A DNA stretch of 56,480 nt. It comes from a virus. Lineage: Duplodnaviria > Caudoviricetes. The translations under genes were made by a program, and so were the position numbers. This document shows, one piece after another, positions 16,638 through 39,977 of this stretch. The stretch lies in IMG/VR virus record IMGVR_UViG_3300022200_000053, positions 1-56,480 of that record; one strand, given 5' to 3'. Below the pieces are notes generated by a model, which was not told the DNA's origin, did not search any database, and worked only from the letters and a program-made list of their open reading frames with translations. Each line of letters starts with the position of its first letter. The first letter of the stretch is position 1.

Positions 16638-16883
16638 ATGAACAAGACCAACAAGATGGCGATGGAAGCCAAAGCGAAAGCTGAGGCAATGGGTTGGGAA
16701 GCTCGGGTTCAACTGGACCAGAGCGACGTTCTCGACATGGCAACGGTGGTTGCTTGGAAGAAGGGAGCAACAGATGAGAGCCCAGCTCGCTACATCCGAT
16801 TCACGGAAGAACGGGAATCGGTTAGAGGTTGGGTTCTAGTTAAGCACGCAATGATCAAGCTGGATTATTGCAACTGTTACTGA
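16638..16883 (+). CDS. First early-region hypothetical protein
   Basis: 81 aa; its stop codon lies in the first family-A repeat. Confidence 0.6.
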   Translation: MNKTNKMAMEAKAKAEAMGWEARVQLDQSDVLDMATVVAWKKGATDESPARYIRFTEERESVRGWVLVKHAMIKLDYCNCY

Positions 16884-16950
16884 TAGCTGGTGCGAAGGGA
16901 GGTTCGATTCCTCCCATCAGACTTGCCCTCAGCGGAGATGGGCACCGCAC
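16880..16950 (+). repeat. Family A element 1 (tRNA-elbow mimic plus TGCCC/GGGCA domain)
   Basis: CTGAT/ATCAG outer stem and GGGAGG-TTCGATT-CCTCCC T-arm, then TTGCCCTCAGCGGAGATGGGCACCGCAC; identical to copy 4. Confidence 0.9.
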
Positions 16951-16964
16951 AACAGGAGATTCCA

Positions 16965-17159
16965 ATGAAGGTTTCTTTTCCCGTTGCATTGACTGCATTC
17001 ATTGCAGTTCCTCTTGCGATCCAAGTTGTTTCTGCAGTGGCTGTATTACCAGCTCTGGAGAAGGCGACGACAGAACAGTGCAAGACCCATGATTGGCCTG
17101 CTCACCAGCATGCTGCTCACATGGATTTCTGTACTAGCAACGGCTACCCAACCAACTGA
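16965..17159 (+). CDS. Small membrane-anchored protein, paralog of 17693-17872
   Basis: AGGAG RBS; TM helix followed by L(E/D)KATxEQCxTHDWP...CxxNGY. Confidence 0.75.
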   Translation: MKVSFPVALTAFIAVPLAIQVVSAVAVLPALEKATTEQCKTHDWPAHQHAAHMDFCTSNGYPTN

Positions 17160-17232
17160 GTACAAGGCGTGATGCCGGGGGATCGAATCCCCTACTCAGT
17201 TATTGCCCAGTACGCAGAGATGGGCACTGCAC
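17154..17232 (+). repeat. Family A element 2
   Basis: AACTGAGTA/TACTCAGTT stem, GGC-GTGAT-GCC hairpin, GGGGG-ATCGAAT-CCCCT arm, then TGCCC...GCAG.AGAT.GGGCA.CTGC. Confidence 0.9.
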
Positions 17233-17247
17233 AATCAGGAGATCCCT

Positions 17248-17388
17248 GTGGGTTACAAGCATCTTTCGGCGGTAGAGCGCCGCATCGTTTTCCAGACCTG
17301 GAAAGCATGGCAGCTTTATCCGGTGCCAAAGCACTGGGTACAGCAGGCCATCCAGGAAGCCCTGATTAATTTCAGGTCTCCCAACTGA
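17248..17388 (+). CDS. Small hypothetical protein
   Basis: GTG start after an AGGAG RBS, between two family-A elements. Confidence 0.6.
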   Translation: MGYKHLSAVERRIVFQTWKAWQLYPVPKHWVQQAIQEALINFRSPN

Positions 17389-17459
17389 TCCGTAAAAGCG
17401 GTCATCCCCGGTGCAATGCCGGGGTCAGTTATTGCCCCCAGCGGAGATGGGCACCGCAC
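17383..17459 (+). repeat. Family A element 3
   Basis: AACTGA/TCAGTT stem, CCG-TAAAAG-CGG hairpin, CCCCGG-TGCAATG-CCGGGG arm, then the conserved 3' domain. Confidence 0.9.
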
Positions 17460-17472
17460 CACGGAGCAACTC

Positions 17473-17610
17473 ATGGCTATCCGTAAGAACCTTGCCAAGA
17501 CCCTGATCAACGCCGCCAAGGCGGTGGAGAAGGATCAGACAAAAGAACGCATCCAGAAATGGGTGCATGACTCAAGGTTCAAGCTTGCAAAGGTTATTGA
17601 ACCTAACTGA
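17473..17610 (+). CDS. Small basic hypothetical protein
   Basis: MAIRKNLAKTLINAAKAV...; GGAG RBS. Confidence 0.65.
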   Translation: MAIRKNLAKTLINAAKAVEKDQTKERIQKWVHDSRFKLAKVIEPN

Positions 17611-17677
17611 TAGCTGGTGCGAAGGGAGGTTCGATTCCTCCCATCAGACTTGCCCTCAGCGGAGATGGGCACCGCAC
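17607..17677 (+). repeat. Family A element 4
   Basis: Exact copy of element 1. Confidence 0.9.
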
Positions 17678-17692
17678 AACCAGGAGTTTCCT

Positions 17693-17872
17693 GTGACCAA
17701 GCTTATTGCTTCCTACGTAATCATTGCCGCATTCATCATGGGCATTGGTGGACAGATTATTGTTCACCAACTGGACAAGGCTACGGCTGAGCAATGCCGT
17801 ACACACGACTGGCCGAAGGAGGCCGACCAGATCCACAGGGACTGGTGCATTGGTAACGGCTACCAGATCTAG
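17693..17872 (+). CDS. Small membrane-anchored protein, paralog of 16965-17159
   Basis: GTG start with AGGAG RBS; LDKATAEQCRTHDWP...CIGNGY. Confidence 0.75.
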   Translation: MTKLIASYVIIAAFIMGIGGQIIVHQLDKATAEQCRTHDWPKEADQIHRDWCIGNGYQI

Positions 17873-17946
17873 CTGATCCGTTAAAGCGGGTTGGGAGGTG
17901 CGAACCCTCCCACAGTTATTGCCCTTAGCGGAGATGGGCACCGCAC
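17870..17946 (+). repeat. Family A element 5
   Basis: CCG-TTAAAG-CGG hairpin, TGGGAGG-TGCGAAC-CCTCCCA arm, conserved 3' domain. Confidence 0.9.
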
Positions 17947-17960
17947 ACTAACTCAGCTCA

Positions 17961-18149
17961 ATGGACATCCTCTACTTCACCCTGACCACCGAAGATGCTG
18001 TCTACAAGTTCCAGGTCAACAAGGCAGAGAACTTGGTGCGTGTCACCAAGATGATTCTCAAGAACAAGTGCTTTGGAGAGTGGCATCGTTCCACGTCAAT
18101 GACTGTAGACGCAGGGCGAAAGCTCGTGCGTCAACTACAGGCCAGGTGA
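17961..18149 (+). CDS. Small hypothetical protein
   Basis: 62 aa between family-A elements. Confidence 0.65.
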   Translation: MDILYFTLTTEDAVYKFQVNKAENLVRVTKMILKNKCFGEWHRSTSMTVDAGRKLVRQLQAR

Positions 18150-18217
18150 GTATAGCTCCCAAGCCAGGTGCAATGCCTGGCTCTGGTCATTGCCCCCAGC
18201 GGAGATGGGCACCGCAC
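18140..18217 (+). repeat. Family A element 6
   Basis: GGCCAG/CTGGTC stem, GAG-TATAG-CTC hairpin, AGCCAGG-TGCAATG-CCTGGCT arm, conserved 3' domain. Confidence 0.85.
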
Positions 18218-18233
18218 ACTCGGAACTAACAAC

Positions 18234-18425
18234 GTGTTCTTCGTTGTTCTCAACAACCAGCAGCACAGTGCACACTTCTGCCAAGAAGATGCGTACATCG
18301 AAGCTGCTCAACTGGACCACATGCTCAACTCTCCAGAGTTGAACGATGGAGTCCAGAACTTCAACGAGGTATCCGTTCTCTCCTTCGTGGAGATGATGGA
18401 GTCTCCGGTTGAGATGGTCATCTGA
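18234..18425 (+). CDS. Small acidic hypothetical protein
   Basis: GTG start, between family-A elements. Confidence 0.55.
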   Translation: MFFVVLNNQQHSAHFCQEDAYIEAAQLDHMLNSPELNDGVQNFNEVSVLSFVEMMESPVEMVI

Positions 18426-18492
18426 CCAGGCGTGATGCCGGGGGATCGAATCCCCCACTCAACCATTGCCCCCACGGGAGATGGGCACCCAC
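18407..18492 (+). repeat. Family A element 7 (near-cloverleaf)
   Basis: GGTTGAG/CTCAACC 7-bp stem enclosing TGGTC..GACCA, GGC-GTGAT-GCC and GGGGG-ATCGAAT-CCCCC hairpins; 3' domain carries the GGG/CCC variant. Confidence 0.85.
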
Positions 18493-18506
18493 ACATGGAG
18501 AGATCC

Positions 18507-18809
18507 ATGCACGTCTACCAGCTTACCGAGAATCCTCGTGATTCGTTTTACGGTGGCGATGATTTGTCCACTGTCATCGGTTATTACGCTTCTAAGCGTA
18601 AAGCAGATGCCAAGGCTGTAGAGCTATCAGCTCGACAAGCTAAGGAAGAAGAGCTGGATTGGATTACCAATCCTTGCGAATGCGGTGATCGCCAGTGTGA
18701 TCGCCGTGACAAGTTCTTCACATCTTGGCATGTGGACAGAATTGATCTAACTGAGTTGTCGATGCGGCGACTCATGGAGATCGAGTTGGCTGATGCCGAC
18801 GAAGACTGA
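18507..18809 (+). CDS. Hypothetical protein with a CxC-x4-C cluster
   Basis: GGAG RBS; MHVYQLTENPRDS...PCECGDRQC. Confidence 0.65.
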   Translation: MHVYQLTENPRDSFYGGDDLSTVIGYYASKRKADAKAVELSARQAKEEELDWITNPCECGDRQCDRRDKFFTSWHVDRIDLTELSMRRLMEIELADADED

Positions 18810-18879
18810 TCCGTCAAAGCGGGTGACCAGGTGCAAACCCTGGTCCAGTTATTGCCCCCAGCGGAGATGGGCACCGCAC
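18804..18879 (+). repeat. Family A element 8
   Basis: CCG-TCAAAG-CGG hairpin, GACCAGG-TGCAAAC-CCTGGTC arm, conserved 3' domain. Confidence 0.9.
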
Positions 18880-18893
18880 ACCAGGAGTTTCCT

Positions 18894-19088
18894 GTGGACC
18901 AAGCTCTTGCTTACACTCTTGAAGTGCTGATCTCCCTTCGTGAGGCAGCAATTGAAGATTGCTGTCAGAGAATGGTTAGCCATGAAACCTGCATGGCCGA
19001 GATGGTTGATCGTTTCATTAAGGCTAATGATCCGAATGGTGAGATTGCCAGGAAGGTCTATGCCTCAATGTTTAGGTCAGACCACTAA
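18894..19088 (+). CDS. Small hypothetical protein
   Basis: GTG start after AGGAG. Confidence 0.6.
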   Translation: MDQALAYTLEVLISLREAAIEDCCQRMVSHETCMAEMVDRFIKANDPNGEIARKVYASMFRSDH

Positions 19089-19089
19089 T

Positions 19090-19159
19090 TAGCTGATCCG
19101 TTAAAGCGGGAGGCAGGGTGCGATCCCCTGCCCAGTTATTGCCACCCACCGAGGGTGGC
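19090..19159 (+). repeat. Family A element 9 (divergent 3' hairpin)
   Basis: CCG-TTAAAG-CGG hairpin and GGCAGGG-TGCGATC-CCCTGCC arm, then GCCACCC-ACCGA-GGGTGGC. Confidence 0.85.
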
Positions 19160-19171
19160 TTACACAAGATC

Positions 19172-19432
19172 ATGCAACCTCTAATCTATCAACCCAAGCA
19201 CGAACATAAGTATCGTGTCGCATGGTATGGCAGTAGCACCCAGCTTCACTTCCAGAAGTACTGCTTAGTTGCCACGCCTGATTTTGATGGAGATTACGAG
19301 TGGATCGACATCGATGTCCGTAATCTCATGGGTGGCCTTCCGAATGGTGTTAAGGAATTGCACCAGGAGATGGAAGATTATTACAACTATGGCATAGTCC
19401 AGGAACAGGACTATGCTGCATCACTTGTCTAA
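19172..19432 (+). CDS. Hypothetical protein
   Basis: MQPLIYQPKHEHKYRVAW..., downstream of element A9. Confidence 0.65.
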   Translation: MQPLIYQPKHEHKYRVAWYGSSTQLHFQKYCLVATPDFDGDYEWIDIDVRNLMGGLPNGVKELHQEMEDYYNYGIVQEQDYAASLV

Positions 19433-19457
19433 CAATCTAGCCTTTTATTTCAGTTAA

Positions 19458-19673
19458 TTGATCATGCAACGTAACGAATTTGTTGACGCTTGTGTTGCTA
19501 TTGTCATTGGCACTGGTAGTGGCTTACTCCTATCTGTTGGAGCACAGAAGTCGCTCAACAACCACTACAAAGCAACGTGCAATGACAGACCAGGACACAA
19601 CCTTGTCTACGCCCACGGACTCTTAGGTGATACTTACTATTGCGTTAAGAGTAAGTACGTAAGTATCAACTGA
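19458..19673 (+). CDS. Small membrane protein
   Basis: N-terminal hydrophobic helix. Confidence 0.55.
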   Translation: MIMQRNEFVDACVAIVIGTGSGLLLSVGAQKSLNNHYKATCNDRPGHNLVYAHGLLGDTYYCVKSKYVSIN

Positions 19674-19674
19674 T

Positions 19675-19720
19675 CTCTGCTCTAAGGGGCTTCGGCCCTT
19701 TACTGCAGGGTTCTCCTGCA
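19675..19720 (+). repeat. Family D element 1 (UUCG hairpin plus second hairpin)
   Basis: AAGGGGC-TTCG-GCCCTTT followed by TGCAGG-GTTCT-CCTGCA. Confidence 0.6.
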
Positions 19721-19748
19721 TCCACTCAACTCAACCCAAGCTAGTTCC

Positions 19749-19988
19749 ATGAACTACCAAGCTGTTGAACATCTCCTCACCCAGGATGCTCGTCTCCTGG
19801 CACGTCGAGATTCTCCTGTCATTGACCAAGAGCTGGAAGAACAGCGTCAAGCTGCACTCGATCTCTTCTTCCAGTGGCAGGATGGTATGTGTCAGTTCCA
19901 AGAGCTGATGCCATTCGTTGCTATCATCCAACGCAAGGTGGATCTCAACAGAGATCTGCTGCGTTGGGAACGTAAGCATGAAGACTGA
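19749..19988 (+). CDS. Hypothetical protein
   Basis: 79 aa with a C/A-rich leader. Confidence 0.65.
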   Translation: MNYQAVEHLLTQDARLLARRDSPVIDQELEEQRQAALDLFFQWQDGMCQFQELMPFVAIIQRKVDLNRDLLRWERKHED

Positions 19989-19989
19989 A

Positions 19990-20038
19990 TCCTGATCGGA
20001 GGGGCTTCGGCCCTTCCCACCAGGACTCAATATCCTGG
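19990..20038 (+). repeat. Family D element 2
   Basis: GGAGGGGC-TTCG-GCCCTTCC followed by CCAGGA-CTCAATA-TCCTGG. Confidence 0.6.
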
Positions 20039-20063
20039 GCACTAAACCCATTGTTACTACGGA

Positions 20064-20330
20064 ATGGCAATTTCAATTGACTACCACGACATCACAGCAG
20101 CTTGTGAAAAGTTCAGGCTTAAGCCCACAGATTATTACCTTGAATTCAACGATCAAGTTGTTTATATGTACTGGGTTGCATGCCCAGTTGATATATATGA
20201 CTACATGAAAGGTGATATGACGTGCCTTGATTTTCAACGTAAAGGCAAGTGGCTCAGCTTTGAAGAATGCTCTGATCAATATGAAGAGCGTCCATTCACA
20301 AACATGCGTTACATCCTGGAGACTATCTGA
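20064..20330 (+). CDS. Hypothetical protein
   Basis: 88 aa. Confidence 0.6.
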   Translation: MAISIDYHDITAACEKFRLKPTDYYLEFNDQVVYMYWVACPVDIYDYMKGDMTCLDFQRKGKWLSFEECSDQYEERPFTNMRYILETI

Positions 20331-20521
20331 TGAAGACGATCTACCGCCTTGGGAAAGGCTACGTCCACATGGATTCTTATCCTGAGACACATGAGACTCG
20401 CCCTTCTATTGCAGTAGTCCTCCTCTCCCTCCTCCTTGCCGCCATCACCGGCGGGGCATTGGTTGGTGTGGATATCACCAAGCCACAACCTGAGGTGTCG
20501 CATCACATCACTGGCTACTAA
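20330..20521 (+). CDS. Small membrane protein
   Basis: Central TM helix IAVVLLSLLLAAITGGALVGV. Confidence 0.6.
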   Translation: MKTIYRLGKGYVHMDSYPETHETRPSIAVVLLSLLLAAITGGALVGVDITKPQPEVSHHITGY

Positions 20522-20531
20522 CCACTGAACT

Positions 20532-20571
20532 ACCTGGGCATCACACGATCACGTGTGTGTAAGTCCCAGGT
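20532..20571 (+). repeat. Family B element 1
   Basis: ACCTGGG-CAT-[CACACG ATCA CGTGTG]-TGTAAGT-CCCAGGT. Confidence 0.9.
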
Positions 20572-20594
20572 CCAACCCTCATCCTCTCGATACC

Positions 20595-20942
20595 ATGACA
20601 ACTCAACTCAAAGAACACATCCAAGTTCTGGAGGCTCGAATCCAGTGCCTGATCGACGCAATGCTCGCCAAGTACGAGAAGGAGTACCAAGTGGGTGGCA
20701 TTGAATTTGAAATTGTGAAAGGCACCAAGTACTACAAGCTGATTGAGAAGAGCACCAGGGCATCAGGAATGGGTGGTACATCTGTCCATGCATTTATTGA
20801 TCGTCAGTCCGGATCTGTCATGAAACCAGCAAGTTGGAAATCACCTGCAAAGCATGTGAGGTACAATCTGATGGATGATGTTTCATATGCTGAATGTCTT
20901 GAGCGTTGTGATTGGGCAGGTGTTTACCTCTACCTTAAATAA
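20595..20942 (+). CDS. Conserved phage hypothetical protein (SVHAF..KPASWKxPAKHVRYNL family)
   Basis: Motif recognised from cyanophage hypothetical proteins. Confidence 0.7.
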   Translation: MTTQLKEHIQVLEARIQCLIDAMLAKYEKEYQVGGIEFEIVKGTKYYKLIEKSTRASGMGGTSVHAFIDRQSGSVMKPASWKSPAKHVRYNLMDDVSYAECLERCDWAGVYLYLK

Positions 20943-20944
20943 CC

Positions 20945-21391
20945 ATGGGATTTAGAACACCTGAGCAAAGGCGGCGTTATTTGCAGAACCGTTATCAACA
21001 ACGGATTCAACAATGCCGCGCTTTATTAGGAGGAAAGTGTGTCAAGTGCGGATGCACTGAAAAGCTGGAGTTTGACCACATCGATCCACTCACAAAGACG
21101 GCATCTATTTCAAGATTGCTTGCCAATGGCAATAAAGCTGACCTTGAGAAAGAGCTACAGAAGTGCCAGTTGTTATGCAATTCATGCCATGTAGCTAAAA
21201 CAGCTGAGAAGAAAGAGAACGTAACCAATGTTAAGTCTTGGTTAATAACCAAGAAAGATTCAAGTACTGTTGTCTGCACCAACTTGTCTCAATGGTGCAA
21301 AGACAATGGCTATAAAGAGCAAGTCTTACGAGACATTGCTAGGAACAGAAGATCATTGAAGTGCGACATTGCTTTTGTGGTCAAATTGTAA
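20945..21391 (+). CDS. HNH endonuclease
   Basis: CVKCG...LEFDHIDP...KCQLLCNSCH. Confidence 0.85.
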   Translation: MGFRTPEQRRRYLQNRYQQRIQQCRALLGGKCVKCGCTEKLEFDHIDPLTKTASISRLLANGNKADLEKELQKCQLLCNSCHVAKTAEKKENVTNVKSWLITKKDSSTVVCTNLSQWCKDNGYKEQVLRDIARNRRSLKCDIAFVVKL

Positions 21392-21396
21392 ACTCC

Positions 21397-21442
21397 TGGG
21401 CATCCTTATTGAGAACTCTTCTCAATAGTGGTGTAAGTCCCA
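21397..21442 (+). repeat. Family B element 2
   Basis: TGGG-CAT-[CC..TATTGAGAA CTC TTCTCAATA..GG]-TGTAAGT-CCCA. Confidence 0.9.
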
Positions 21443-21473
21443 ATCAACTTTCATTCATCACCTGAACATTCCA

Positions 21474-21848
21474 ATGCGCACTCGTATCTCTATCGTCAAA
21501 GAGAACAGGATTTGGAATCTGCGTTGTCAAGGTTACTGCTACGACTCTATCGGTAGCATTGTCAACTGCAACCCTACATCAATCACACGTGTCATCAAGC
21601 GTGTCCGTAACCGTCCACCAGTTGAACAAGATCCTATCCGACGTGGAAGATTGCATTCATTCCTGAGTGATGAGCAGGTAGAAGACATCCGTACACGCAA
21701 GGCTAACGGTGAATCTGCTGTCAAACTTGCAGATGATTACACCGTAACTATTGGTGCCATCTACCACATCACAACGCACCGTACTTACAAGGAACCTTGT
21801 GGTGATGGTGGCTACACATATAACTTTCGTAATCGCTTGATGCGTTAA
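21474..21848 (+). CDS. Helix-turn-helix DNA-binding protein
   Basis: Two HTH-like segments (GYCYDSIGSIVNCNPTSITRVI; GESAVKLADDYTVTIGAIYHI). Confidence 0.65.
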   Translation: MRTRISIVKENRIWNLRCQGYCYDSIGSIVNCNPTSITRVIKRVRNRPPVEQDPIRRGRLHSFLSDEQVEDIRTRKANGESAVKLADDYTVTIGAIYHITTHRTYKEPCGDGGYTYNFRNRLMR

Positions 21849-21850
21849 TC

Positions 21851-21901
21851 CCTGGGCATCCACACCATAATGATTACGTTATGTGTGGTGTAAGTCCCAG
21901 G
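21851..21901 (+). repeat. Family B element 3
   Basis: CCTGGG-CAT-[CCACAC.CATAA..TTATG.TGTGG]-TGTAAGT-CCCAGG. Confidence 0.9.
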
Positions 21902-21928
21902 TTCCTGTCTACTTAGTCAACTCAAATT

Positions 21929-22108
21929 ATGTACAGCAACTACGAAGCAGACTACATGGATGCAATGGCTGATCGCCTTGCTGACATTGATGATGCCATC
22001 CGTGAATCTGAGCAAGATGAATGGGGTGGTGTCGAAGAGATCTCGGCAGAAGAACGTTATGCCTGTGAGCTCTACAACGAACGTAACGTCTACCCTTACT
22101 ACGACTGA
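21929..22108 (+). CDS. Very acidic small protein (59 aa, not in ORF track)
   Basis: MYSNYEADYMDAMADRLADIDDAIRESEQDEW...; follows element B3 and a C/A-rich leader. Confidence 0.6.
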   Translation: MYSNYEADYMDAMADRLADIDDAIRESEQDEWGGVEEISAEERYACELYNERNVYPYYD

Positions 22109-22215
22109 ACCATGCCTACCAAGAAGATCAATCCATGGCAGCAGGCATGGGATGACGGTGACATCATCCTCATCCTTCTTGCTGTCATCTCACTCATCAT
22201 CACTGAACTTGCATC

Positions 22216-22584
22216 ATGTCTTATCTCAGCTGGCTCCAAGCAACCTACCCACGCACCTGGAAACTCCGGCGTGCAATCAACAGCTACAACATCCACAAAG
22301 AGTGGGAAGGTGAAGAGCCAACCACGATCACGATCCACGAAACCTACCAGTGTTACGGAGGACCCGAAGAAGGCGGCTGGTGGTACAACCAAGGCTGGCC
22401 CGTCCAAACCATCTGCATCTTCAACAAGAAGCAAGCGATCAAAGAATACATCCAGTACGCAGACGACTACGAAGTCTGGGACCAACCAGACCTCGGGCTC
22501 ACGTCGACGCGTTCGAACTATGACGTCAACTTCGCGAACGACTTTGCCAAGCACTATCCTGAACAGCGACCTGTCTATTGCTAA
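22216..22584 (+). CDS. Conserved phage protein (YGGPEEGGWW motif)
   Basis: Motif common in phage hypothetical proteins. Confidence 0.7.
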   Translation: MSYLSWLQATYPRTWKLRRAINSYNIHKEWEGEEPTTITIHETYQCYGGPEEGGWWYNQGWPVQTICIFNKKQAIKEYIQYADDYEVWDQPDLGLTSTRSNYDVNFANDFAKHYPEQRPVYC

Positions 22585-22832: not shown

Positions 22833-22902
22833 CATCATAACACTTCTGTAGTATTGGTTGGTATTGGTCATTAGGCAATACATGCCAATACTACAGTCCA
22901 CA

Positions 22903-22940
22903 CCTGGGCATCCACCTATCATGGTGGTGTAAGTCCCAGG
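22903..22940 (+). repeat. Family B element 4
   Basis: CCTGGG-CAT-[CCACC TATCAT GGTGG]-TGTAAGT-CCCAGG. Confidence 0.9.
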
Positions 22941-22969
22941 ACTTTCCATTTACTTCACACCCAAACACA

Positions 22970-23242: not shown

Positions 23243-23426
23243 GTGATCCAAGCCTTGCTGGCATCTAGATAGTACATAAGTATTCCCCCCTCACACTCCC
23301 CGGTGGAGTACCAGGGGGGATCTATGTCTTATATAAGAACTTATTATGTACACTCCTCTATCTAGTACTTGCATTACCTGGTAGACTAACCCAGTCTTTA
23401 GACCACATCACATCAACTCAACACCA

Positions 23427-23639
23427 ATGACTAATCCCAACACTCCTCGTATTCCTGACTCACTTGACATGCAACGACTGCAAGCTATGCAGCTCGTAGC
23501 CAAGATGAAAGAATCAGCTGAGAAACATGGCATTGGATTCATCGGTGGATTCATTTCTCCCAATGGAGAGAAGTTTGTCATGACAAATATGGATGATCAA
23601 GATGACATCAACGCACTCATGCCGGAGGATCTTAAGTAA
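23427..23639 (+). CDS. Hypothetical protein
   Basis: 70 aa with a C/A-rich leader. Confidence 0.65.
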   Translation: MTNPNTPRIPDSLDMQRLQAMQLVAKMKESAEKHGIGFIGGFISPNGEKFVMTNMDDQDDINALMPEDLK

Positions 23640-23693
23640 ATTTAGATCAGAGCACGGTTTGTACCGTGCTCTAAACATTAATCATCTAATTAC

Positions 23694-23894: not shown

Positions 23895-23897
23895 AGA

Positions 23898-23983
23898 TTG
23901 GGCATCTAACAGAATACATCCTCCCCTCACACTCCCCTAGTGGAGTACCAAGGGGATCTTTTATTCTTTAGTGTAAGTCCTAG
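23898..23983 (+). repeat. Family B element 5 (long insert)
   Basis: TTGGG-CAT-[CTAA...long hairpin...TTAG]-TGTAAGT-CCTAG. Confidence 0.8.
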
Positions 23984-24011
23984 GTTTATTCTCTATTTAC
24001 TTAACACAAAC

Positions 24012-24899: not shown

Positions 24900-24902
24900 A
24901 GC

Positions 24903-24958
24903 TTGGGCGTCTGTACTCGTTGTGCAAACAGCACAGAAGGAGGCAGTGTAAGTCCCAA
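24903..24958 (+). repeat. Family B element 6
   Basis: TTGGG-CGT-[CTG...TGTGC AAACA GCACA...CAG]-TGTAAGT-CCCAA. Confidence 0.85.
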
Positions 24959-24988
24959 TGTCCACACCACTCTTATCTCAACTCAACC

Positions 24989-27650: not shown

Positions 27651-27890
27651 ATGCTCTGTTTATCTATGCCTGATTACACAGACGATCAGCTACTTGCCAT
27701 GGCTATGGCAAATCTTGGAGAGTACATCCATGAAAACTCACCTCGTTATGTATTAATTGAAGATCCTCGCAACGAGGATGACTACGATAGCTGGACTTAC
27801 GGAATGGAAGTCCTGCCGCAAGATCACACTTGGCAGTCAACATCAATTGATGTTGATGTAAGTCCAAGTGATGCAGATATGGCGGAATAG
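27651..27890 (+). CDS. Acidic hypothetical protein
   Basis: Likely start is MPDYTDDQ; the 3' end overlaps element B7 and the tRNA. Confidence 0.45.
   Translation: MLCLSMPDYTDDQLLAMAMANLGEYIHENSPRYVLIEDPRNEDDYDSWTYGMEVLPQDHTWQSTSIDVDVSPSDADMAE
27827..27870 (+). repeat. Family B element 7 (directly 5' of tRNA-Leu)
   Basis: CACTTGG-CAG-[TCAACATC AATT GATGTTGA]-TGTAAGT-CCAAGTG. Confidence 0.8.
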
Positions 27891-27958
27891 GTAGACGCAA
27901 CGGACTTAAAATCCGTAGGCCACTGGCCGTGAGAGTTCGAGTCTCTCTATCTGCACCA
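27873..27958 (+). tRNA. trnL: tRNA-Leu(TAA)
   Basis: GCAGATA/TATCTGC acceptor stem, GGTAGACGC D-arm, ACGGA-CTTAAAA-TCCGT anticodon arm, long variable arm, GTTCGAG T-loop and encoded CCA. Confidence 0.95.
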
Positions 27959-27980: not shown

Positions 27981-28343
27981 ATGCAAATCTTTGCTGCATT
28001 CAAACACCTCATCCCTGAATTCCATGCATACTCTGACGAGGACAAGCGTTACAACATTGGTGCTACCTGGACTGCTGCTGATGGGCTCCAGGACTTTCAC
28101 AACCTAGAGCTACGGTATGTCCGTAACTCTGAGAGGCTTGCGCTCCAAGGTGATCCACAGCCTGATGGAAGCTGGAAGTATGTCGAACCCAATGGCTGCG
28201 TCCATACCATCTCCGCTGAACGTGCTAAGCACTTTATGGAGCAGACCCAAGCACATGCACACATCGTGTGTGACATGCTCGATAAGCTAAGGGAGTCTGG
28301 TATAGGGCAGGAAGTCCTGGACACACAAGCCCATCCCGCATAG
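27981..28343 (+). CDS. Hypothetical protein
   Basis: 120 aa with a C/A-rich leader. Confidence 0.65.
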   Translation: MQIFAAFKHLIPEFHAYSDEDKRYNIGATWTAADGLQDFHNLELRYVRNSERLALQGDPQPDGSWKYVEPNGCVHTISAERAKHFMEQTQAHAHIVCDMLDKLRESGIGQEVLDTQAHPA

Positions 28344-28371
28344 AATCTCTGAGGAATGTTCGGCCCCTGCA

Positions 28372-28764
28372 ATGCAGGGGTCTTTCTCTATGACAAATGA
28401 AACCCAAACTGGACTCATTGATCTTGACCTTGTTGACAAAGTCCATGCAATGATTCCCAAGTCAACATGGCCTGTTGTTACCAAGGGTGTTGTCTCTTAT
28501 ATCGTTGACAACATGCCTGGTTCTGTTGTTGAACAACTGACGGGTTCATACACTGACTTCGAAGAAGCAGAGAAGATTCTCTTGAGTTATTACCAAGATG
28601 AATCCAGGTCTGATGGTAAAGAATTGATCACTGATTCTTTTGGCATTCTTGGTGCAGAGAATATCCTTTACTACTTGGATTCACTGCAACTTGATAAGCT
28701 AGCTGATCATCTAAACAACAAGACTCCCACTGAAGATGACATTTCAGAAACAGGAGAGGGGTAA
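28372..28764 (+). CDS. Hypothetical protein
   Basis: 130 aa; start may be MTNETQ. Confidence 0.65.
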   Translation: MQGSFSMTNETQTGLIDLDLVDKVHAMIPKSTWPVVTKGVVSYIVDNMPGSVVEQLTGSYTDFEEAEKILLSYYQDESRSDGKELITDSFGILGAENILYYLDSLQLDKLADHLNNKTPTEDDISETGEG

Positions 28765-34643: not shown

Positions 34644-34644
34644 A

Positions 34645-35142
34645 ATGGGCTACCACATTTATTTGAAACCTTTACCAAGCAAAGAAATGTTGCACAGAAT
34701 TTTGCAATATGAAAAAGAAACTGGATATCTTTACTGGAAAAAAACTGGAAAACTTGTAAAAGCCTGCGCTAAAGATTTGGAGAATAAATATAAACGAATA
34801 ATGATTGATAAAGAACATTACGTATTACATCGCATTATCTATCAAATGCATTATGTGGATTTGAAAACAGATGAAGTAATTGATCACATTGATAGGAATA
34901 AACAAAACAATAGAATTGAAAACTTAAGAAAAGTTAATGTTTTTATTAATAATCAAAACCAGGGAAATCGCAAAAACAATACATCTGGATATAAAGGAGT
35001 TTCTTGGTCAAAGCAAAAACAAAAGTGGCGTGCAACAATCACAGTTAAAAGAAAACATAAAACGCTTGGATTTTTTACTACCAAAGAAGAAGCTTTTGAA
35101 TGTTACAAAAAAGCTAAACAAGCATTTCACTCTTGCGTTTGA
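34645..35142 (+). mobile_element. HNH/AP2 homing endonuclease gene inserted at the polA 3' end
   Basis: HRIIY...IDHIDRNKQNNRIENLR and NTSGYKGVSW...KWRA AP2-like domain; AT-rich. Confidence 0.9.
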
Positions 35143-35146
35143 AAAC

Positions 35147-35185
35147 CACTCTCGAGTAGGATCTGACTGGAGCCAGACCCACTAA
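35147..35185 (+). pseudogene. Displaced duplicate of the polA C-terminus
   Basis: Encodes HSRVGSDWSQTH*, which aligns with the polA end DARVGHTWYDVH*. Confidence 0.7.
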
Positions 35186-35187
35186 CA

Positions 35188-35367
35188 ATGGACCTTGAAC
35201 CAAAAAACTTTATTAACATTCAACCATCAACATTAAAGATTGTATGCCCCAAACATGGAACGCATTCTCAATATATTGAAAGCACAATCCAAGGTCATGA
35301 GGGTTATTGGTGCATGATCTGTTGGCTGGAAACTCTTGGTGATTCACTTCCCGTTGTAAAAGAATGA
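35188..35367 (+). CDS. Small Zn-binding protein (59 aa, not in ORF track)
   Basis: IVCPKHG...YWCMIC. Confidence 0.6.
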   Translation: MDLEPKNFINIQPSTLKIVCPKHGTHSQYIESTIQGHEGYWCMICWLETLGDSLPVVKE

Positions 35368-35372
35368 TTACA

Positions 35373-35399
35373 CGTCCTAAGCATGACGTTAAACTGCTT
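35373..35399 (+). repeat. Family C pseudoknot 4
   Basis: CGTC-CT-AAGCA-T-GACG-TTAAAC-TGCTT. Confidence 0.9.
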
Positions 35400-35420
35400 T
35401 AACACCTAACATCTGATTTC

Positions 35421-36242
35421 ATGAATTACGTTGACGCATGCGCTGTCCTCAACGAAAATCCTCGTGAGGTATACACCAGTGCAACATCATCCAATCTGTG
35501 TGCAGAAGTAATCCTGCCTCCGGTTGGTAACAAAGCATCAACTCAACTCACGCTTCATGTTTATGGAAAATCTTGTGAGAAGTTCAAAGATCTCACCAAA
35601 GGAACCCGTGTGTACATTCACGGCTCCAAGTTACGTCACGATCTCGACACCAAAACGCATTCGCTTCATGGAGGAATTATTGTTCCGGTTACAGAAGCAT
35701 TCCCAGTCTTCAATGATGTCATCCTTACTGGACGTTGTGTAAAGGATATTGATGAATCTGATCCCCGGTCCTTCAGGACCACAGGGGAAGGTTTGATGAT
35801 TTGTAACCAGACTCTTGCTGTTAATACTGGTCGCAATCAATCAGATCTTTTCAACTTTTCTGCAATCAATACAGTGCAAGATAAGTTGAACCAGGCTGAG
35901 CTTCTTGCTAACTTCACACGTAAAGGAACCGGTCTTACAATCCGTGGTCGTCTTGTTACAGATGCATGGGTTGATAAGGACACTAAAGAGCGCAGGACCA
36001 ACGTCAAGATTCAGTTGGTGCAGATGACCCTGGCACCTAAGGCCAGTGGTGAATCTCAAACAAAACCTGTGGGATCCAGGACTCAGCAATCCTCGCCAGA
36101 GGAGAGTGCTAGTCTGTGGGGAGGAAAGACAACTGATGAATCCCCTGATCCTTGGAACCAAGCATCGGGTGGTGGTCTTCCTGATCTCCCTGGCCAGTAC
36201 GGCTCCGCACCCAGCTTTGACTCAGACGAACCTCCCTTTTGA
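35421..36242 (+). CDS. ssb: Single-stranded DNA-binding protein (tandem OB-fold-like)
   Basis: KGTRVYIHG and KGTGLTIRGRLVTDAWVDK OB patterns; acidic DSDEPPF tail. Confidence 0.75.
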   Translation: MNYVDACAVLNENPREVYTSATSSNLCAEVILPPVGNKASTQLTLHVYGKSCEKFKDLTKGTRVYIHGSKLRHDLDTKTHSLHGGIIVPVTEAFPVFNDVILTGRCVKDIDESDPRSFRTTGEGLMICNQTLAVNTGRNQSDLFNFSAINTVQDKLNQAELLANFTRKGTGLTIRGRLVTDAWVDKDTKERRTNVKIQLVQMTLAPKASGESQTKPVGSRTQQSSPEESASLWGGKTTDESPDPWNQASGGGLPDLPGQYGSAPSFDSDEPPF

Positions 36243-36502
36243 GCATCATGCCAATCAACGTTGAAATTCAAGACAATCAAATGTCTTTACGTGATGCCAT
36301 TGCCTACGAGTTTTACATGGACAACCTTACCGGCTACATGGAGAACTGGAGGAAAGAAAATGAAGAAGAACGTGAAGACATTGCCGTTGCTCTTGCAAAA
36401 CTTGCAGTAGCTGCCTTTGCAGTTGCTGATGTTTTTTGCGTAACACGTGATGACATTGTGAACAAAGAAACAACACAAGAAGCTAATGACACCGACGCAT
36501 GA
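36239..36502 (+). CDS. Hypothetical protein
   Basis: 87 aa. Confidence 0.6.
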   Translation: MSIMPINVEIQDNQMSLRDAIAYEFYMDNLTGYMENWRKENEEEREDIAVALAKLAVAAFAVADVFCVTRDDIVNKETTQEANDTDA

Positions 36503-36728
36503 TCAGTTCACTCTCCTTTACGAGGATGAGCACACCAAAGTTCTTTATGAATTTAAAGGTGTTGTTGCAGATGATGTCATTACGCACATCATTGATTTCT
36601 TAAAAGGCTGTGGCTATTGCGAGCACTCTATTTATTCAGTGATGCAAGATGCAGCCGAAGCTTATTTTGAAGCTCAGCAACCATTAAGATTTCCTGCACA
36701 ACAGGATGATCTCATTGGTCTCGACTGA
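36486..36728 (+). CDS. Hypothetical protein
   Basis: DFLKGCGY motif common in phage hypothetical proteins. Confidence 0.65.
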   Translation: MTPTHDQFTLLYEDEHTKVLYEFKGVVADDVITHIIDFLKGCGYCEHSIYSVMQDAAEAYFEAQQPLRFPAQQDDLIGLD

Positions 36729-36733
36729 TAATA

Positions 36734-36761
36734 CGTCCTGGGCATGACGTTAAACTGCCCA
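36734..36761 (+). repeat. Family C pseudoknot 5
   Basis: CGTC-CT-GGGCA-T-GACG-TTAAAC-TGCCC. Confidence 0.9.
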
Positions 36762-36782
36762 TCACCAAACTACGAACAGACT

Positions 36783-37802
36783 ATGACCAGCTCCGTGACT
36801 ACTAAGAAAAACACTTCGCTTGCAACACGTGGCCTTGATTCCTTCAAGCTTTTTCAATCCAAAGAATTTGTCTCGGGATACCAAAATCTCGTTACCATCC
36901 AGCCACTCAATAAGTCCAAGGTACGGGGTTGGTTCGTGCGGAAGTCAGACCTTGACACTTGTGGATGGAGTGCCACTGAAGATCAATTTGCTGACGGTTC
37001 TGTTCTCTGGAACTACAAGCAAACTTTTGGTATGGCTCCCAATACTTCAGTGGAAGAAGGGCTCAATTTCGTTGAGCCTCGCATTCAAATCCTTTTACGT
37101 TCTCCCCTCATGGTTGAGGAGACCACCGGGATGCGACAAGTGATTGGCACCTTTGATGACCCAGAGGTGAAACAGATGTTTGAGAACGATAAGGTTGCGG
37201 CTGATCTCTCCAACAGCAAAGGTGAGATGTATAAGCGTAAGTATGGTGTGCGTACTAAGTATCTGGTCTACATTCTGACCAAGGACAATAAGCGTGCACA
37301 TAAGATCCCGATGGTGCTTACTATCAAGGGGCTAAACGGTACAGACATCTCGGACAAGATCAAACTATACGAGAAGGAAATGTCCAAGTGCCTTAGCAAA
37401 GCACTGGATTCTGAAGTGCCTCTGGCATTCAACGAAAAGTTTTATGCCACCACAGTGTTTGCTCCTGTGCTTGCTAATGAGATGCGTGGTGCAAACAACG
37501 TTGAGATCTGTGCTATCGAATCGTTCGAGATCCCTGATTATTCAACGCAAGAAGCTGCGATCGAATCGCTGAGTCGTCTTTCGATCCCCGATGAAGATCG
37601 TGAGTCTACCTGGAAGTATCAAGATATGTTCCAGGACTACATCAACATCCATGCTAAGCAGGATGCAGACAAGCTTGGTGGTGCCTATGGCATCAAGCAA
37701 GGTGTTGAGATTTTGCCCGTGGCTCGCTCCACGGATGCAGTTGACGTGAAAGCACTGCCTGCCCGTGATCCCCTGACTGGAGAGGACGATTCACTCCTCT
37801 GA
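36783..37802 (+). CDS. Hypothetical replication/recombination-module protein
   Basis: About 339 aa with an acidic tail, near SSB; function not established. Confidence 0.65.
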   Translation: MTSSVTTKKNTSLATRGLDSFKLFQSKEFVSGYQNLVTIQPLNKSKVRGWFVRKSDLDTCGWSATEDQFADGSVLWNYKQTFGMAPNTSVEEGLNFVEPRIQILLRSPLMVEETTGMRQVIGTFDDPEVKQMFENDKVAADLSNSKGEMYKRKYGVRTKYLVYILTKDNKRAHKIPMVLTIKGLNGTDISDKIKLYEKEMSKCLSKALDSEVPLAFNEKFYATTVFAPVLANEMRGANNVEICAIESFEIPDYSTQEAAIESLSRLSIPDEDRESTWKYQDMFQDYINIHAKQDADKLGGAYGIKQGVEILPVARSTDAVDVKALPARDPLTGEDDSLL

Positions 37803-38012
37803 TTGAGCTGGGAGCTGATGTGAGAATTGTCCTTGCATCAGCTCCATTGCATCTTTGACCAATCCTTTAATTGCAATCTGCCGTGTTGCTGCGATCTTCG
37901 TAAGCAGCACGGCCATTTCTTTTACTTCTTCCAGGGAGGTAGATTCATTGATGGATCGAATAGTTTTTTCTTGCCAGAACAGATCTTCTGGTGACATTTC
38001 AAATTTGAGCAT
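37791..38012 (-). CDS. nblA: NblA-like phycobilisome degradation protein
   Basis: Helix-loop-helix MSPEDLFWQEKTIRSI...SLEEVKEMAVLL resembles the NblA LSLEQQF...L pattern. Confidence 0.55.
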   Translation of the reverse strand: MLKFEMSPEDLFWQEKTIRSINESTSLEEVKEMAVLLTKIAATRQIAIKGLVKDAMELMQGQFSHQLPAQSEE

Positions 38013-38178
38013 GTTATTTAATTGTCTTTTGTTATTGTACTCGACCAGTTAAAACCATTTGAGATCTTTGTGTTGTGTTAAGAATTACACACAGACCGCG
38101 ACCTCCTCCCCTACACCCTGTTATGCTTGGTCGGTCGGCTGCACCAAGTATGCTTGACAACTCAACTCCATTCCAATC

Positions 38179-39117
38179 ATGTCCATCCAAACACAAACTG
38201 AACTCAACGCAGCGCAGGCGTCGATCTACTCGCAGACGAACATTACGCGTGCATACCAGGGCTTTGATGACACCGAGATTGCTGGCATTTATCTGCGAGG
38301 CGATCATTGTATTGTGGTGCGTCGCGATGGTAGTGAGCAGGCTTATGACCGTGAATTAATCAAGACCCAGTACAATACCTACACCTATCGACTGAAAGAT
38401 TTCTTTTCTTACCTTGGCCCTAATTATCGTGGCCCTAGTGTATGGCATAACAATGCTTACATTATGTTTAAGGGCTGGCATTACTCACACGCACTCGGAC
38501 ACTTGACATCCAATGCAAAACTTCAAGCTCACTGGGCTGACAAATTTATACATGTATCCGAACAACAAAAGCTTGTCCACCTGCTCCAGTCCGATCAGAC
38601 GGATCTTGGCCATCTGGTTGCACCAGACGGAATGCGGCTTCAGGGTCGGCCCATTGATCTTGACAGCGACATGGAAGGCGAACAGGCACCTGTCATGGGT
38701 GAACCTTGGTGTTCGTGTGGGTCGTATCAGCGTCAGCTCAGCAACTTATCTGACTTTGAGGCCGAAATCACAGGATTCAAACCCTGGTGCATCCACCTGA
38801 GCTGGTTCAACAAGTACCGTGAACTGCTGTGTAAACGCACCGAAGCACGGAACGCAAGCCCCAGTGGCACACCTGAGAAGTGCGTTGCCTGGTGGTTTGC
38901 TCCGCCTGCTGACCACATCAGCGATGGTCGTTTTGTACTTTTGTACACCAACTCAGGGGCACAAGCTCCACTGACTCACTGGCGTACCTACAAACCTAAG
39001 GAGATCTTTACGCAGCACGACGCATGGGATTTGTTCTTTAATATGTGTGATGCAGGCTACGTTCCATTCCCTGGTACTGCGCTGCCACAACTCAAGTCTG
39101 CTGTTAAGAAACAATGA
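38179..39117 (+). CDS. SWIM zinc-finger protein
   Basis: CSCGSY...WCIH (CxC...CxH). Confidence 0.7.
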   Translation: MSIQTQTELNAAQASIYSQTNITRAYQGFDDTEIAGIYLRGDHCIVVRRDGSEQAYDRELIKTQYNTYTYRLKDFFSYLGPNYRGPSVWHNNAYIMFKGWHYSHALGHLTSNAKLQAHWADKFIHVSEQQKLVHLLQSDQTDLGHLVAPDGMRLQGRPIDLDSDMEGEQAPVMGEPWCSCGSYQRQLSNLSDFEAEITGFKPWCIHLSWFNKYRELLCKRTEARNASPSGTPEKCVAWWFAPPADHISDGRFVLLYTNSGAQAPLTHWRTYKPKEIFTQHDAWDLFFNMCDAGYVPFPGTALPQLKSAVKKQ

Positions 39118-39362
39118 CACCTAAACTTGATTATGTTCTGATATCAGATTTGTATGATTACACTTTAGGCTTGGTATCAAAACCATTTACCCAAATGCAA
39201 TTGCACAACAGCAAGTACACCATGAACCTTGAAGTTGACGAAGACACCTACTGGGGTCTTGTTAAGCTAGGTGCAGAGATTAAAACCGACTGTGAAACCT
39301 ATGCAGAAAACGTACTCCTCGGCCATGTGCAATCCGAGTTCGATAAACAAACTGAAGATTGA
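39114..39362 (+). CDS. Hypothetical protein
   Basis: 82 aa. Confidence 0.5.
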   Translation: MTPKLDYVLISDLYDYTLGLVSKPFTQMQLHNSKYTMNLEVDEDTYWGLVKLGAEIKTDCETYAENVLLGHVQSEFDKQTED

Positions 39363-39516
39363 ATTCATCGAAGAAGATGATGGATCCGGTACCATCCACA
39401 TCGAGTGGGACGAGAAAGATCCAGATCTTCAATGGTGGACTGACCTTGGTGACGAAGGTCAAAAAACCTTTATACTTGATGCACTCCACAAAGCTTGTTC
39501 CAACCATGTCGATTGA
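39325..39516 (+). CDS. Hypothetical protein
   Basis: IEEDDGSGTIHIEWDEKDP motif. Confidence 0.55.
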   Translation: MCNPSSINKLKIEFIEEDDGSGTIHIEWDEKDPDLQWWTDLGDEGQKTFILDALHKACSNHVD

Positions 39517-39931
39517 CACCTACGGACTTTCAACAGAGCAGTACCAAGAGTTCTTTGAAGATAATGTTCGGTTTGCTGCTGAGCTTTATCTACAAACTTG
39601 CAACATCTTGACCACCAAAGGTGTTGGGAATGTGGACTTCAAAACAGTCCTTGATATGTACCAAGAATGCACCTATCAGACCAACGATGATTGTCGTCGC
39701 TACCAAAAAGCAAACAACCCTGAAGCCGTTAAGGATGATGTGTTGTTTGAATTGAGTCCTACCAGGCAAGAGCTTCTTCTGCGCATGGAATCTGTTGATG
39801 CCAAGATCGAAGCACTCACTGATTACATCTGTAAACTGACCGACTACATTAATAAACTGACTGAGATTGTAACTGCTGGTCTTAATGGCGTCACCGATGC
39901 CCTGGGTACCGACCAAACAGTGCTAGACTAA
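39506..39931 (+). CDS. Hypothetical protein
   Basis: Likely start is MSIDTYG; short LTDYI tandem repeat. Confidence 0.6.
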   Translation: MSIDTYGLSTEQYQEFFEDNVRFAAELYLQTCNILTTKGVGNVDFKTVLDMYQECTYQTNDDCRRYQKANNPEAVKDDVLFELSPTRQELLLRMESVDAKIEALTDYICKLTDYINKLTEIVTAGLNGVTDALGTDQTVLD

Positions 39932-39949
39932 TCACGTCTTCCAAGGGAC

Positions 39950-39977
39950 CGTCCTGAGTATGACGTAAAACTGCTCA
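39950..39977 (+). repeat. Family C pseudoknot 6
   Basis: CGTC-CT-GAGTA-T-GACG-TAAAAC-TGCTC. Confidence 0.9.

Follow-up and report, generated by a model that had tools for sequence, protein, structure and literature searches.

Covarying RNA structures at the gene boundaries of a cyanophage early/middle region: candidate signals for mRNA processing and stabilisation

The IMG/VR virus record IMGVR_UViG_3300022200_000053 is a phage assembly of 56,480 nucleotides (nt), the whole of which is referred to here as the window. Between about 16.6 and 41 kb its plus strand carries some 56 mostly small open reading frames (ORFs), and among these lie 24 repeated elements of four families, A to D. What are these elements for? 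An earlier note, made by a model from the sequence alone, described them as structured RNA punctuation marks which may cut one long transcript into single-gene units and/or protect the new 5' ends from the host ribonucleases RNase J and RNase E. The explanation favoured here, to which an even chance is given, is that they are cis-acting mRNA processing and stabilising boundaries which use host RNase Z and RNase P, with cleavage as a putative step, and which block 5'-to-3' decay. In the long sense-strand early/middle transcripts of this S-EIV1-like cyanophage, the elements would split polycistronic RNA into units whose ends would be made and protected separately, each element taking up the minimal room left between one ribosome that terminates and the next that initiates.

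Covarying structures between the early and middle genes

All 24 elements (nine of family A, two of D, seven of B and six of C) are present at the positions noted. The families were recovered by repeat search, and copies of A, B and C also with covariance models, run over the whole window on both strands with filters off; in the window the elements occur on the sense strand only. The four families recur in 25 related IMG/VR contigs, fetched via the PcfJ-like protein (46–62% identity), and in Synechococcus phage S-EIVl. The order A, D, B, C, which the earlier note had described as largely followed in the window, is kept in these relatives. The proposed location, at or just after a stop codon and ahead of the next start, was upheld by a rough gene list. 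Of the 24 elements, 22 overlap the stop of the upstream ORF (ORFs of at least 40 codons) or begin no more than 30 nt after it, and a start codon lies 1–31 nt downstream of 22. An element is present in 24 of the 34 gaps of at least 40 nt and in none of the 21 tighter junctions. The leaders which follow the elements are C/A-rich, unstructured and mostly devoid of a Shine-Dalgarno sequence.

Counted over the window and 26 related loci, the bias towards the sense strand is marked, with 57 sense and 0 antisense copies of A, 97 and 2 of B (100/104 by covariance-model matches), 101 and 3 of C, and 11 and 0 as well as 15 and 0 in two counts of D. The compensatory stem changes, from which selection on the RNA fold had been argued, are likewise borne out by controls. 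In a MAFFT alignment of 14 copies of A, the three helices are 92.4% paired against 71.7% in shuffled alignments, and both partners have changed in 10 of 16 pairs. For C, 90.5% of cells are paired in 49 distinct copies against 79.6% when shuffled and 20–45% when slid, and none of 500 shuffles reaches the observed pairing or covariation. For B the figures are 90.4% and 78.5%, in an alignment which was fitted to the model and so leans towards the structure. Base-pair covariation in A, B and C is far above shuffled and slid controls. Furthermore, no known family accounts for the elements: nothing in Rfam 15 matches A to D at the gathering score or at E≤10, and the tRNA family is the sole Rfam match in the window. 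The observation of 24 structured elements is thus real and confirmed in its folds, conservation, covariation and placement.

A shared TGGGCA core, also claimed for the families, stands only in part. Of the 24 elements, 17 contain the hexamer (A 8, B 5, C 3, D 1); these account for 17 of its 21 occurrences between 16.8 and 40 kb. In relatives, however, it changes together with its pairing partner, and it is therefore local to this phage rather than a conserved core or recognition sequence.

Family C and the coremin motif

The covariance model of family C gives six matches in the window, all on the plus strand and with E from 1e-12 to 2.4e-11, the next best having E 0.35. The 35-nt unit aligns without gaps and consists of a 5-bp hairpin with an 8-nt loop, six bases of which pair with six bases 3' of an invariant UUAAAC spacer to form helix 2. 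In the 49 distinct copies helix 2 is 93.5% paired and four of its six pairs are changed on both sides. Its loop lengths of 1 nt, 1 nt and 5–6 nt would, by our reading, be those of a classical H-type pseudoknot. At least 116 IMG/VR loci carry at least 144 matches to the C pattern. Among the matches listed, at least five of the six helix-2 pairs form in 133 of 144, against 23 of 576 slid controls, and the 126 distinct copies have helix 2 paired at 90.9%, with five of six pairs changed on both sides; the search pattern fixed the first helix and two further positions, which are uninformative in this wide set. Two other identities were considered and rejected. The invariant UAAACU is not a plausible −10 box, since transcripts starting there would miss the covarying helices. 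For the preQ1-I riboswitch and the pistol ribozyme, compared by shape, there is no Rfam match to either, and the match to coremin, described next, is base for base.

A full-text search with the C spacer sequence led to three papers on coremin, and the comparison draws on passages of these. Coremin is an Xrn1-resistant RNA (xrRNA-C, where xrRNA denotes exoribonuclease-resistant RNA) of beny-, cucumo-, polero- and other RNA viruses (PMC6546385, PMC10520033, PMC10321173), and in experiments it stalls a 5'-3' exoribonuclease (PMC6546385, PMC10520033). Its first hairpin has at least three base pairs and a loop-closing C-G, for which U-A is tolerated and G-C is not (PMC6546385). In family C, the pair formed by columns 7 and 16 is C-G in 49 of 49 copies, that of 5 and 18 is G-C in 49 of 49, and that of 6 and 17 is U-A in 40 or A-U in 9. 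The loop-closing C-G and the spacer bases AAACU are essential in coremin (PMC6546385); within the 10-nt spacer GUUAAACUAC, AAACUA is essential whilst UU can be replaced by AA (PMC6546385, PMC10520033). Family C has U20, A22–A24 and C25 invariant and U26 in 48 of 49 copies, and at position 27 a G stands for the A of coremin, which is kept in 6; the copy in Mycobacterium phage Labelle is an AA spacer variant. The 20-nt coremin motif (PMC10520033) and C both have a GUC/GAC stem, a loop which begins with C and has A in the penultimate place, and the spacer GUUAAACU.C. In both RNAs the loop pairs with the end of the spacer, and both are often intergenic. Family C is predicted to be an H-type pseudoknot, and its hairpin and spacer match coremin. 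The loops are less alike. The coremin consensus is YGAD (4 nt) or YGNNAD (6 nt), with natural loops of up to eight bases found and an octaloop variant Xrn1-resistant in vitro in a BNYVV construct, according to the coremin papers; the C loop reads C-(U/C)-NNNN-A-(U/C/A), outside that consensus. A form of coremin with a Watson-Crick pseudoknot between loop and spacer has been selected in vitro (PMC10321173), and the fold of coremin itself is described as unresolved (PMC10520033, PMC10321173).

By analogy, C would be a one-way mechanical block to 5'-to-3' decay arriving from upstream, by RNase J in cyanobacteria and possibly scanning RNase E, and the downstream cistron would be stabilised; a stall of the coremin type would fall one nucleotide before the first hairpin. 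Bacteria or phages are not mentioned in the passages searched of PMC6546385, PMC10520033 and PMC10321173, and the literature searched yielded nothing which links xrRNA, RNase J and phage.

The spacing of C is tight. The G of GUCC most often lies 6 nt from the end of the stop codon (22 of 58 copies, and 27 of 145 for the wide set) and hardly ever nearer; the next ATG follows the pseudoknot, counted from its end, after 20–29 nt in 44 of 58 copies. This suggests that the structure is wedged between two ribosomes, one terminating and one initiating, and is unfolded by neither. Placement 4–6 nt after stops and about 20–30 nt before starts, with the leaders described above, would also suit translational insulation or control, in which the structures stop sliding or re-initiating ribosomes, or offer a clean landing site, and the cistrons initiate independently. 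Coremin motifs indeed stall scanning ribosomes and stimulate −1 frameshifting in vitro (PMC10520033, PMC10321173). These ribosome data stem, however, from eukaryotic scanning and in vitro frameshift assays, the 21 tight junctions do without any element, and the tRNA-like shape of A and the position of B directly before a tRNA, considered below, are left unexplained; insulation is an unlikely explanation.

Family C is widespread, being found in phages of cyanobacteria, Firmicutes and Actinobacteria. Isolate phages were sought by BLAST with three loop variants, a search which reaches near-identical loops only, and the fold is present in eight of the eight matches inspected. These include Moorella MTATph1, Corynebacterium phi673, Synechococcus S-H35 and a microvirus, Nostoc NMeng1, with a C-like knot 6 nt before an annotated pseudo-tRNA, and Mycobacterium Labelle, with one about 180 nt before tRNA-Gln. 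Knots and tRNA or tRNA-like genes co-occur in unrelated phages (NMeng1 and Labelle). In Staphylococcus aureus phage B166 (21042–21069) a C-like motif separates the head-morphogenesis gene from the ORF41/major-capsid genes, where a higher stability of the downstream part would make sense; 83–90 Staphylococcus phage records match by BLAST, of which B166 was the one inspected. No Escherichia, Klebsiella, Salmonella or Pseudomonas phage appears among the organism names listed in the three BLAST searches, two tallies of which hold 9 and 5 further unnamed genera and 78 and 53 records outside the listing. Exceptions to the trend towards hosts with RNase J are a Vibrio phage cluster (27 records) and, by name, two Stenotrophomonas and two Aeromonas records, and the link to host RNase J is suggestive only.

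Outside isolate phages, about nine bacterial contigs carry the full C fold in a 14-mer scan, most of whose 120 listed rows are chance matches from which no count is derivable; in 10 bacterial loci no Rfam family matches at the C-like motif at E≤1. In three contigs of bacterial metagenome-assembled genomes (L050, L083 and L130) a small conserved ORF (...YMLRPxAHCKxGCxxLSRA) runs into the knot, its stop TGA lying within the 3' strand of the hairpin; by reading, the genes downstream are putative Rrf2-like (L050) and putative flavodoxin-like (L130). A CRISPR spacer at about 1790–1830 of L095, a contig binned as Bradymonadales, matches the C motif in its AAGCA loop variant. In a group of IMG/VR loci (L163, L169, L189, L249 and L252) the motif follows an ATAATA(N)CTAGT box at 0 nt, and the knot may there sit at the very 5' end of the primary transcript.

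T4-type phages carry promoter-early stem-loop cassettes, and a role at the DNA level must be weighed for the present elements too, either as recombination substrates which shuffle small early genes or as promoters or hairpin promoters. Elements A1 and A4, which share 75 nt at 100% identity, lie on either side of paralogous small ORFs, the copy number of A varies among relatives (9 here against 2 in S-EIVl), S. aureus phage records, that of B166 included, mark the C site as a promoter predicted by BPROM, and some IMG/VR copies of C lie 6 nt after an ATAATA-like box. Other features make such a role very unlikely. G-U pairs are frequent and strand-specific, with 40 U-G and 23 G-U cells in two helix-2 pairs of C for example; the elements lie almost only on the sense strand; interleaved covariation between loop and downstream bases is unexpected for a duplex DNA site; and sigma-70-like matches in the region fall below those in shuffled sequence (16 versus a mean of 32).

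Families A, B and D at the same boundaries

The T-arm of tRNA is a 5-bp stem closed by G53-C61, with a 7-nt loop U54-U55-C56-R57-A58. Family A consists of an acceptor-like stem of 5–7 bp, one or two arms of 3–4 bp and a T-stem of 5–6 bp with a 7-nt loop. The closing G-C pair of its T-stem is invariant in 14 of 14 copies, and the loop is mostly U-G-C-R-A-N-N, with UUCGAUU in A1 and A4, AUCGAAU in A2 and A7, and mostly G at position 55. The T-arm is one expected of a tRNA-like substrate of RNase P and RNase Z. Measured against a benchmark of a 7-bp acceptor on the T-stem (a 12-bp minihelix), the acceptor helix is 82.7% paired, with five of seven pairs changed on both sides. A covariance model built from the 14 copies finds 46, all on the sense strand; in the window the family model recovers five of the nine copies at E≤4e-15, and the others, subtypes with a middle arm unlike that of the seed, are weakly matched or unmatched. 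Eight of the nine window copies enclose the upstream stop codon. Family A is accordingly modelled as a mini tRNA-like element which holds the upstream stop codon.

A second structure always follows. The sequence UUGCC is found 1–3 nt after the acceptor 3' strand in 42 of 42 distinct copies and opens either a plain hairpin, as in most relatives and in A9, or two interleaved helices, as in eight window copies; the latter covary in nine sequences only, being 98.8% paired with three pairs changed on both sides. The same A module is present in the early gp9/gp10 gap of cyanopodovirus Syn5 and before the capsid gene of cyanopodovirus S-SBP1. It is attractive to suppose that A recruits the host's tRNA 3'-processing machinery, RNase Z and perhaps RNase P. 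Were it cut after its discriminator-like base, the upstream mRNA would keep its stop codon and acquire a tRNA-like 3' end, and the downstream mRNA would bear a hairpin or pseudoknot 1–2 nt from the new 5' end.

Family B has an outer stem of 5–7 bp and a C-G pair, then a bulge of 5 nt in the 3' strand, invariably UAAGU, and an inner hairpin whose length is free. Some 11 invariant bases (GGC ... G/A-UAAGUCC) thus surround a freely variable apex, in units which range from 34 to 92 nt. Its covariance model finds five of the seven window copies at E≤3.7e-4, the two with large apical insertions scoring weakly. In relatives, too, B elements stand directly before a tRNA, as B7 does here. An exact B 15-mer is present in 72 IMG/VR loci, mostly S-EIV-like contigs, whilst a BLAST search of isolate phages returned one chance match and a full-text literature search with the bulge sequence found nothing relevant. 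Identification of B as a K-turn, bulge-helix-bulge, hairpin-ribozyme or hammerhead site was rejected by reading, as the defining bases are absent. Family D comprises a variable hairpin, often UUCG-capped, and then the conserved hairpin CAGGA-CUCAACA-UCCUG. Two alternative pairings are open to the middle strand of the UUCG subtype. B and D would be boundary hairpins, protecting the upstream unit at its 3' end and/or bound by some factor. The position of B7, which stops 1 nt short of the RNase P site of tRNA-Leu, is in keeping with 3' protection.

Two further hairpins were seen near B elements. A fifth repeat (CCCCUCACACUCCCC..GUGGAGUACCA.GGGG) at 23283–23325 caps a long hairpin in the element-free gap 23243–23426 and recurs at 23926–23960 in the apex of B5. 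Upstream of B4, at 22850–22895, there is a hairpin with a conserved AAUACAUGCCAAUAC, found at the same place in many relatives.

The conserved bases of B invite another reading, in which the elements are operators for phage-encoded or host RNA-binding proteins, each family marking a temporal gene class that is switched together. About 11 invariant bases around an apex of variable length are typical of a protein-recognised bulge, and the families do lie in blocks along the unit, in an order kept by relatives. A scan of 20 ORFs revealed no RNA-binding protein family, however, and the occurrence of C and A in unrelated phage families with different gene sets favours a host partner. This reading seems quite unlikely.

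Several points weigh against processing and protection by host enzymes, the explanation preferred here. In C, the second loop base is U or C and never G (S-EIV set), where the coremin consensus needs G; the last loop base is C in some copies, and C at that place failed in the coremin tests. The second hairpin (hp2) which the coremin papers give as needed for Xrn1 resistance is missing: in this phage only an unstructured C/A-rich leader runs from C to the ATG, and the 6-bp helix between loop and downstream bases stands in the place of hp2. A pseudoknot alone is not enough for a stall, because there was no stalling of Xrn1 at known frameshifter pseudoknots of comparable size (PMC10321173), and Xrn1 is a different nuclease from RNase J. 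A verified Vibrio phage copy lies on the strand opposite the annotated genes. As for A, it is recognised neither by ARAGORN nor by the Rfam tRNA model even at E≤10, and it lacks a D arm, an anticodon arm and CCA. The stop codon of the upstream ORF sits in its acceptor 5' strand; an RNase P cut would take that codon off, and each terminating ribosome must melt the element. There is no linker between the 3' strands of the two helices behind A, which makes a stacked pseudoknot hard to build, and the helices may therefore alternate rather than coexist. Finally, B is without a known partner.

A more far-reaching proposal joins families C and A. In it, phages of bacteria with a 5'-to-3' exoribonuclease would share the coremin knot with plant and fungal RNA viruses, which use it against Xrn1, as a cross-kingdom xrRNA; the 6-bp covarying helix 2 would be the long-sought pseudoknot of coremin; and the mini-tRNAs which cyanophages place at stop codons would lead host tRNA enzymes to cut early polycistrons into capped and stable single-gene messages. 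As a whole this is a tentative proposal, possible but rather to be doubted.

Genomic setting and known parallels

The phage shares 69% identity in its family-A DNA polymerase with Synechococcus phage S-EIVl, the only phage which the DNA of the window, the whole assembly, matches over several kb. Structural genes occupy the minus strand in the left part. The ORFs of the element-bearing plus strand include those for a PcfJ-like protein, ThyX, GP88, DNA polymerase, SSB, DUF5895 and a Gp157-like protein. The scan for protein families covered 20 ORFs (two sets of 10, with 2 ORFs in both sets) and brought up neither an RNA polymerase nor an RNase family. Outside that scan are about 60 small ORFs and the following of at least 150 amino acids: 5635–6252, 6634–7530, 7541–8152, 8152–8604, 11050–11616, 11650–12303, 34645–35142, 39377–39931, 43510–44061, 47095–47772, 49760–50341 and 50664–51518.

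Strong terminator-like hairpins are present at 16218–16238 and 28362–28382. A sigma-70-like match (TGGACA-17-TAGAAT) stands directly 5' of the latter, between two genes, and the interval 28318–28382 may be the border between the A/D/B-rich and the C-rich units. A perfect 10-bp hairpin (AGAGCACGG...CCGUGCUCU) lies directly 3' of a stop codon at 23646–23670, in a gap without a family element. On the minus strand, 46849–46919 gives an Rfam tRNA match of 42.3 bits at a site which ARAGORN does not report. The positions of the elements are collected in Table 1.

Table 1. Coordinates in the window of the family members, a degenerate C-like copy and the tRNA gene (folds as predicted; E from the covariance model of each family)
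Feature	Positions	Strand	Fold and setting	Model E
A1	16879–16950	+	tRNA-like with canonical UUCGAUU T-loop, and pseudoknot; upstream TGA inside element	
A2	17155–17232	+	tRNA-like (7-bp acceptor stem, GGC-GUGAU-GCC arm, T-arm) and pseudoknot	
A3	17383–17459	+	tRNA-like and pseudoknot	2.7e-16
A4	17606–17677	+	tRNA-like and pseudoknot; 75 nt 100% identical to A1	
A5	17871–17946	+	tRNA-like and pseudoknot	3.4e-16
A6	18140–18217	+	tRNA-like and pseudoknot	4e-15
A7	18407–18493	+	tRNA-like with two small arms (near-cloverleaf), and pseudoknot; upstream TGA in first arm	
A8	18804–18879	+	tRNA-like and pseudoknot	2.9e-15
A9	19091–19160	+	tRNA-like, then plain hairpin CCACCC/GGGUGG; ortholog in S-EIVl	8.3e-18
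D1	19675–19727	+	UUCG-capped hairpin and second hairpin; possible alternative pairing	
D2	19990–20040	+	UUCG-capped hairpin and conserved CAGGA-CUCAAUA-UCCUG hairpin	
B1	20531–20572	+	hairpin with UAAGU bulge	1.4e-7
B2	21397–21442	+		1.1e-4
B3	21849–21903	+		8.5e-7 (3.7e-4 in whole-window run)
B4	22901–22942	+		5.8e-8
B5	23895–23986	+	B base with 60-nt apical insertion carrying repeat E (the fifth repeat)	3 (weak match)
B6	24900–24961	+	B base with long apical part	0.53
B7	27826–27871	+	ends 1 nt (A27872) before tRNA-Leu	7.6e-6
tRNA-Leu(UAA)	27873–27958	+	true tRNA among the early/middle genes bearing the elements	
C0	16589–16616	+	degenerate C-like hairpin and UUAAAC spacer, 21 nt before first early gene; same sequence in relative L004	1.1 (weak match)
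C1	25578–25612	+	coremin-like H-type pseudoknot	3.8e-12
C2	25834–25868	+		5e-12
C3	31723–31757	+	before GP88-family gene	9.4e-12
C4	35370–35404	+	before SSB gene	2.4e-11
C5	36731–36765	+	before DUF5895 gene	1.2e-12
C6	39947–39981	+		1.1e-11

The interest of these structures would be considerable. If C blocks RNase J, it would be the first class of exoribonuclease-resistant RNA from bacteria or phages in the literature searched, and it would link the RNA biology of phages with that of eukaryotic viruses. The hundreds of natural covarying copies of C would provide a direct structural model for coremin, and its position between the head-assembly and capsid genes in Staphylococcus phages may set the stoichiometry of late proteins. 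The tRNA-like module would show phages borrowing tRNA processing to punctuate their mRNAs as organelles do. The folds of A, B and C are compact and modular, and are potential insulators or stabilisers for engineered operons.

The interpretation offered in the earlier note is thus partly supported. Covarying structures at gene boundaries, acting at the RNA level and confined almost wholly to the sense strand, are upheld; the cutting into single-gene units is a putative step, and the analogy with T7 RNase III sites and the TGGGCA core hold up poorly. T7 early RNA carries RNase III processing sites, and the families described here resemble these in being repeated related hairpins with an internal loop between early phage genes. 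For B the analogy is nevertheless poor, because its shortest natural copies (8 distinct, 34 nt) have only about 11 bp, where a site of the T7 type would have about two duplex turns and an internal loop. What is conserved in B is a 5-nt bulge and its flanks, and A and C are more than simple hairpins.

Protection from RNase J, the other part of that interpretation, fits family C, as C carries the hairpin-plus-spacer signature of coremin. The settings are different, with DNA phages and bacterial contigs in place of eukaryotic RNA viruses and RNase J or RNase E in place of Xrn1; the C loop has 8 nt, its second helix is made of six Watson-Crick pairs, and its blocking function is putative. Structures which stabilise from the 5' terminus are found on bacterial and phage mRNAs, as exemplified by the leader pseudoknot of T4 gene 32. 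There, as here, a pseudoknot or hairpin is followed by an unstructured leader, and one copy of C precedes the SSB gene of the phage. By contrast with the T4 case, many copies are placed here before unrelated genes, and the sequence signature is common across phage families.

The parallel with organellar tRNA punctuation is closer than the earlier note could have known, since A turns out to be tRNA-like. Mitochondrial transcripts are punctuated by tRNAs, and plant mitochondrial mRNAs bear tRNA-like 't-elements'. Family A is likewise tRNA-shaped and lies between coding regions, where it could be cut by RNase P or RNase Z to set mRNA ends, and a true tRNA-Leu is also present among the early/middle genes of this phage. 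The phage module, the cutting of which is putative, differs in being reduced to an acceptor stem and a T-arm with one or two tiny arms besides, in overlapping the upstream stop codon, and in always having a hairpin or pseudoknot on its 3' side.

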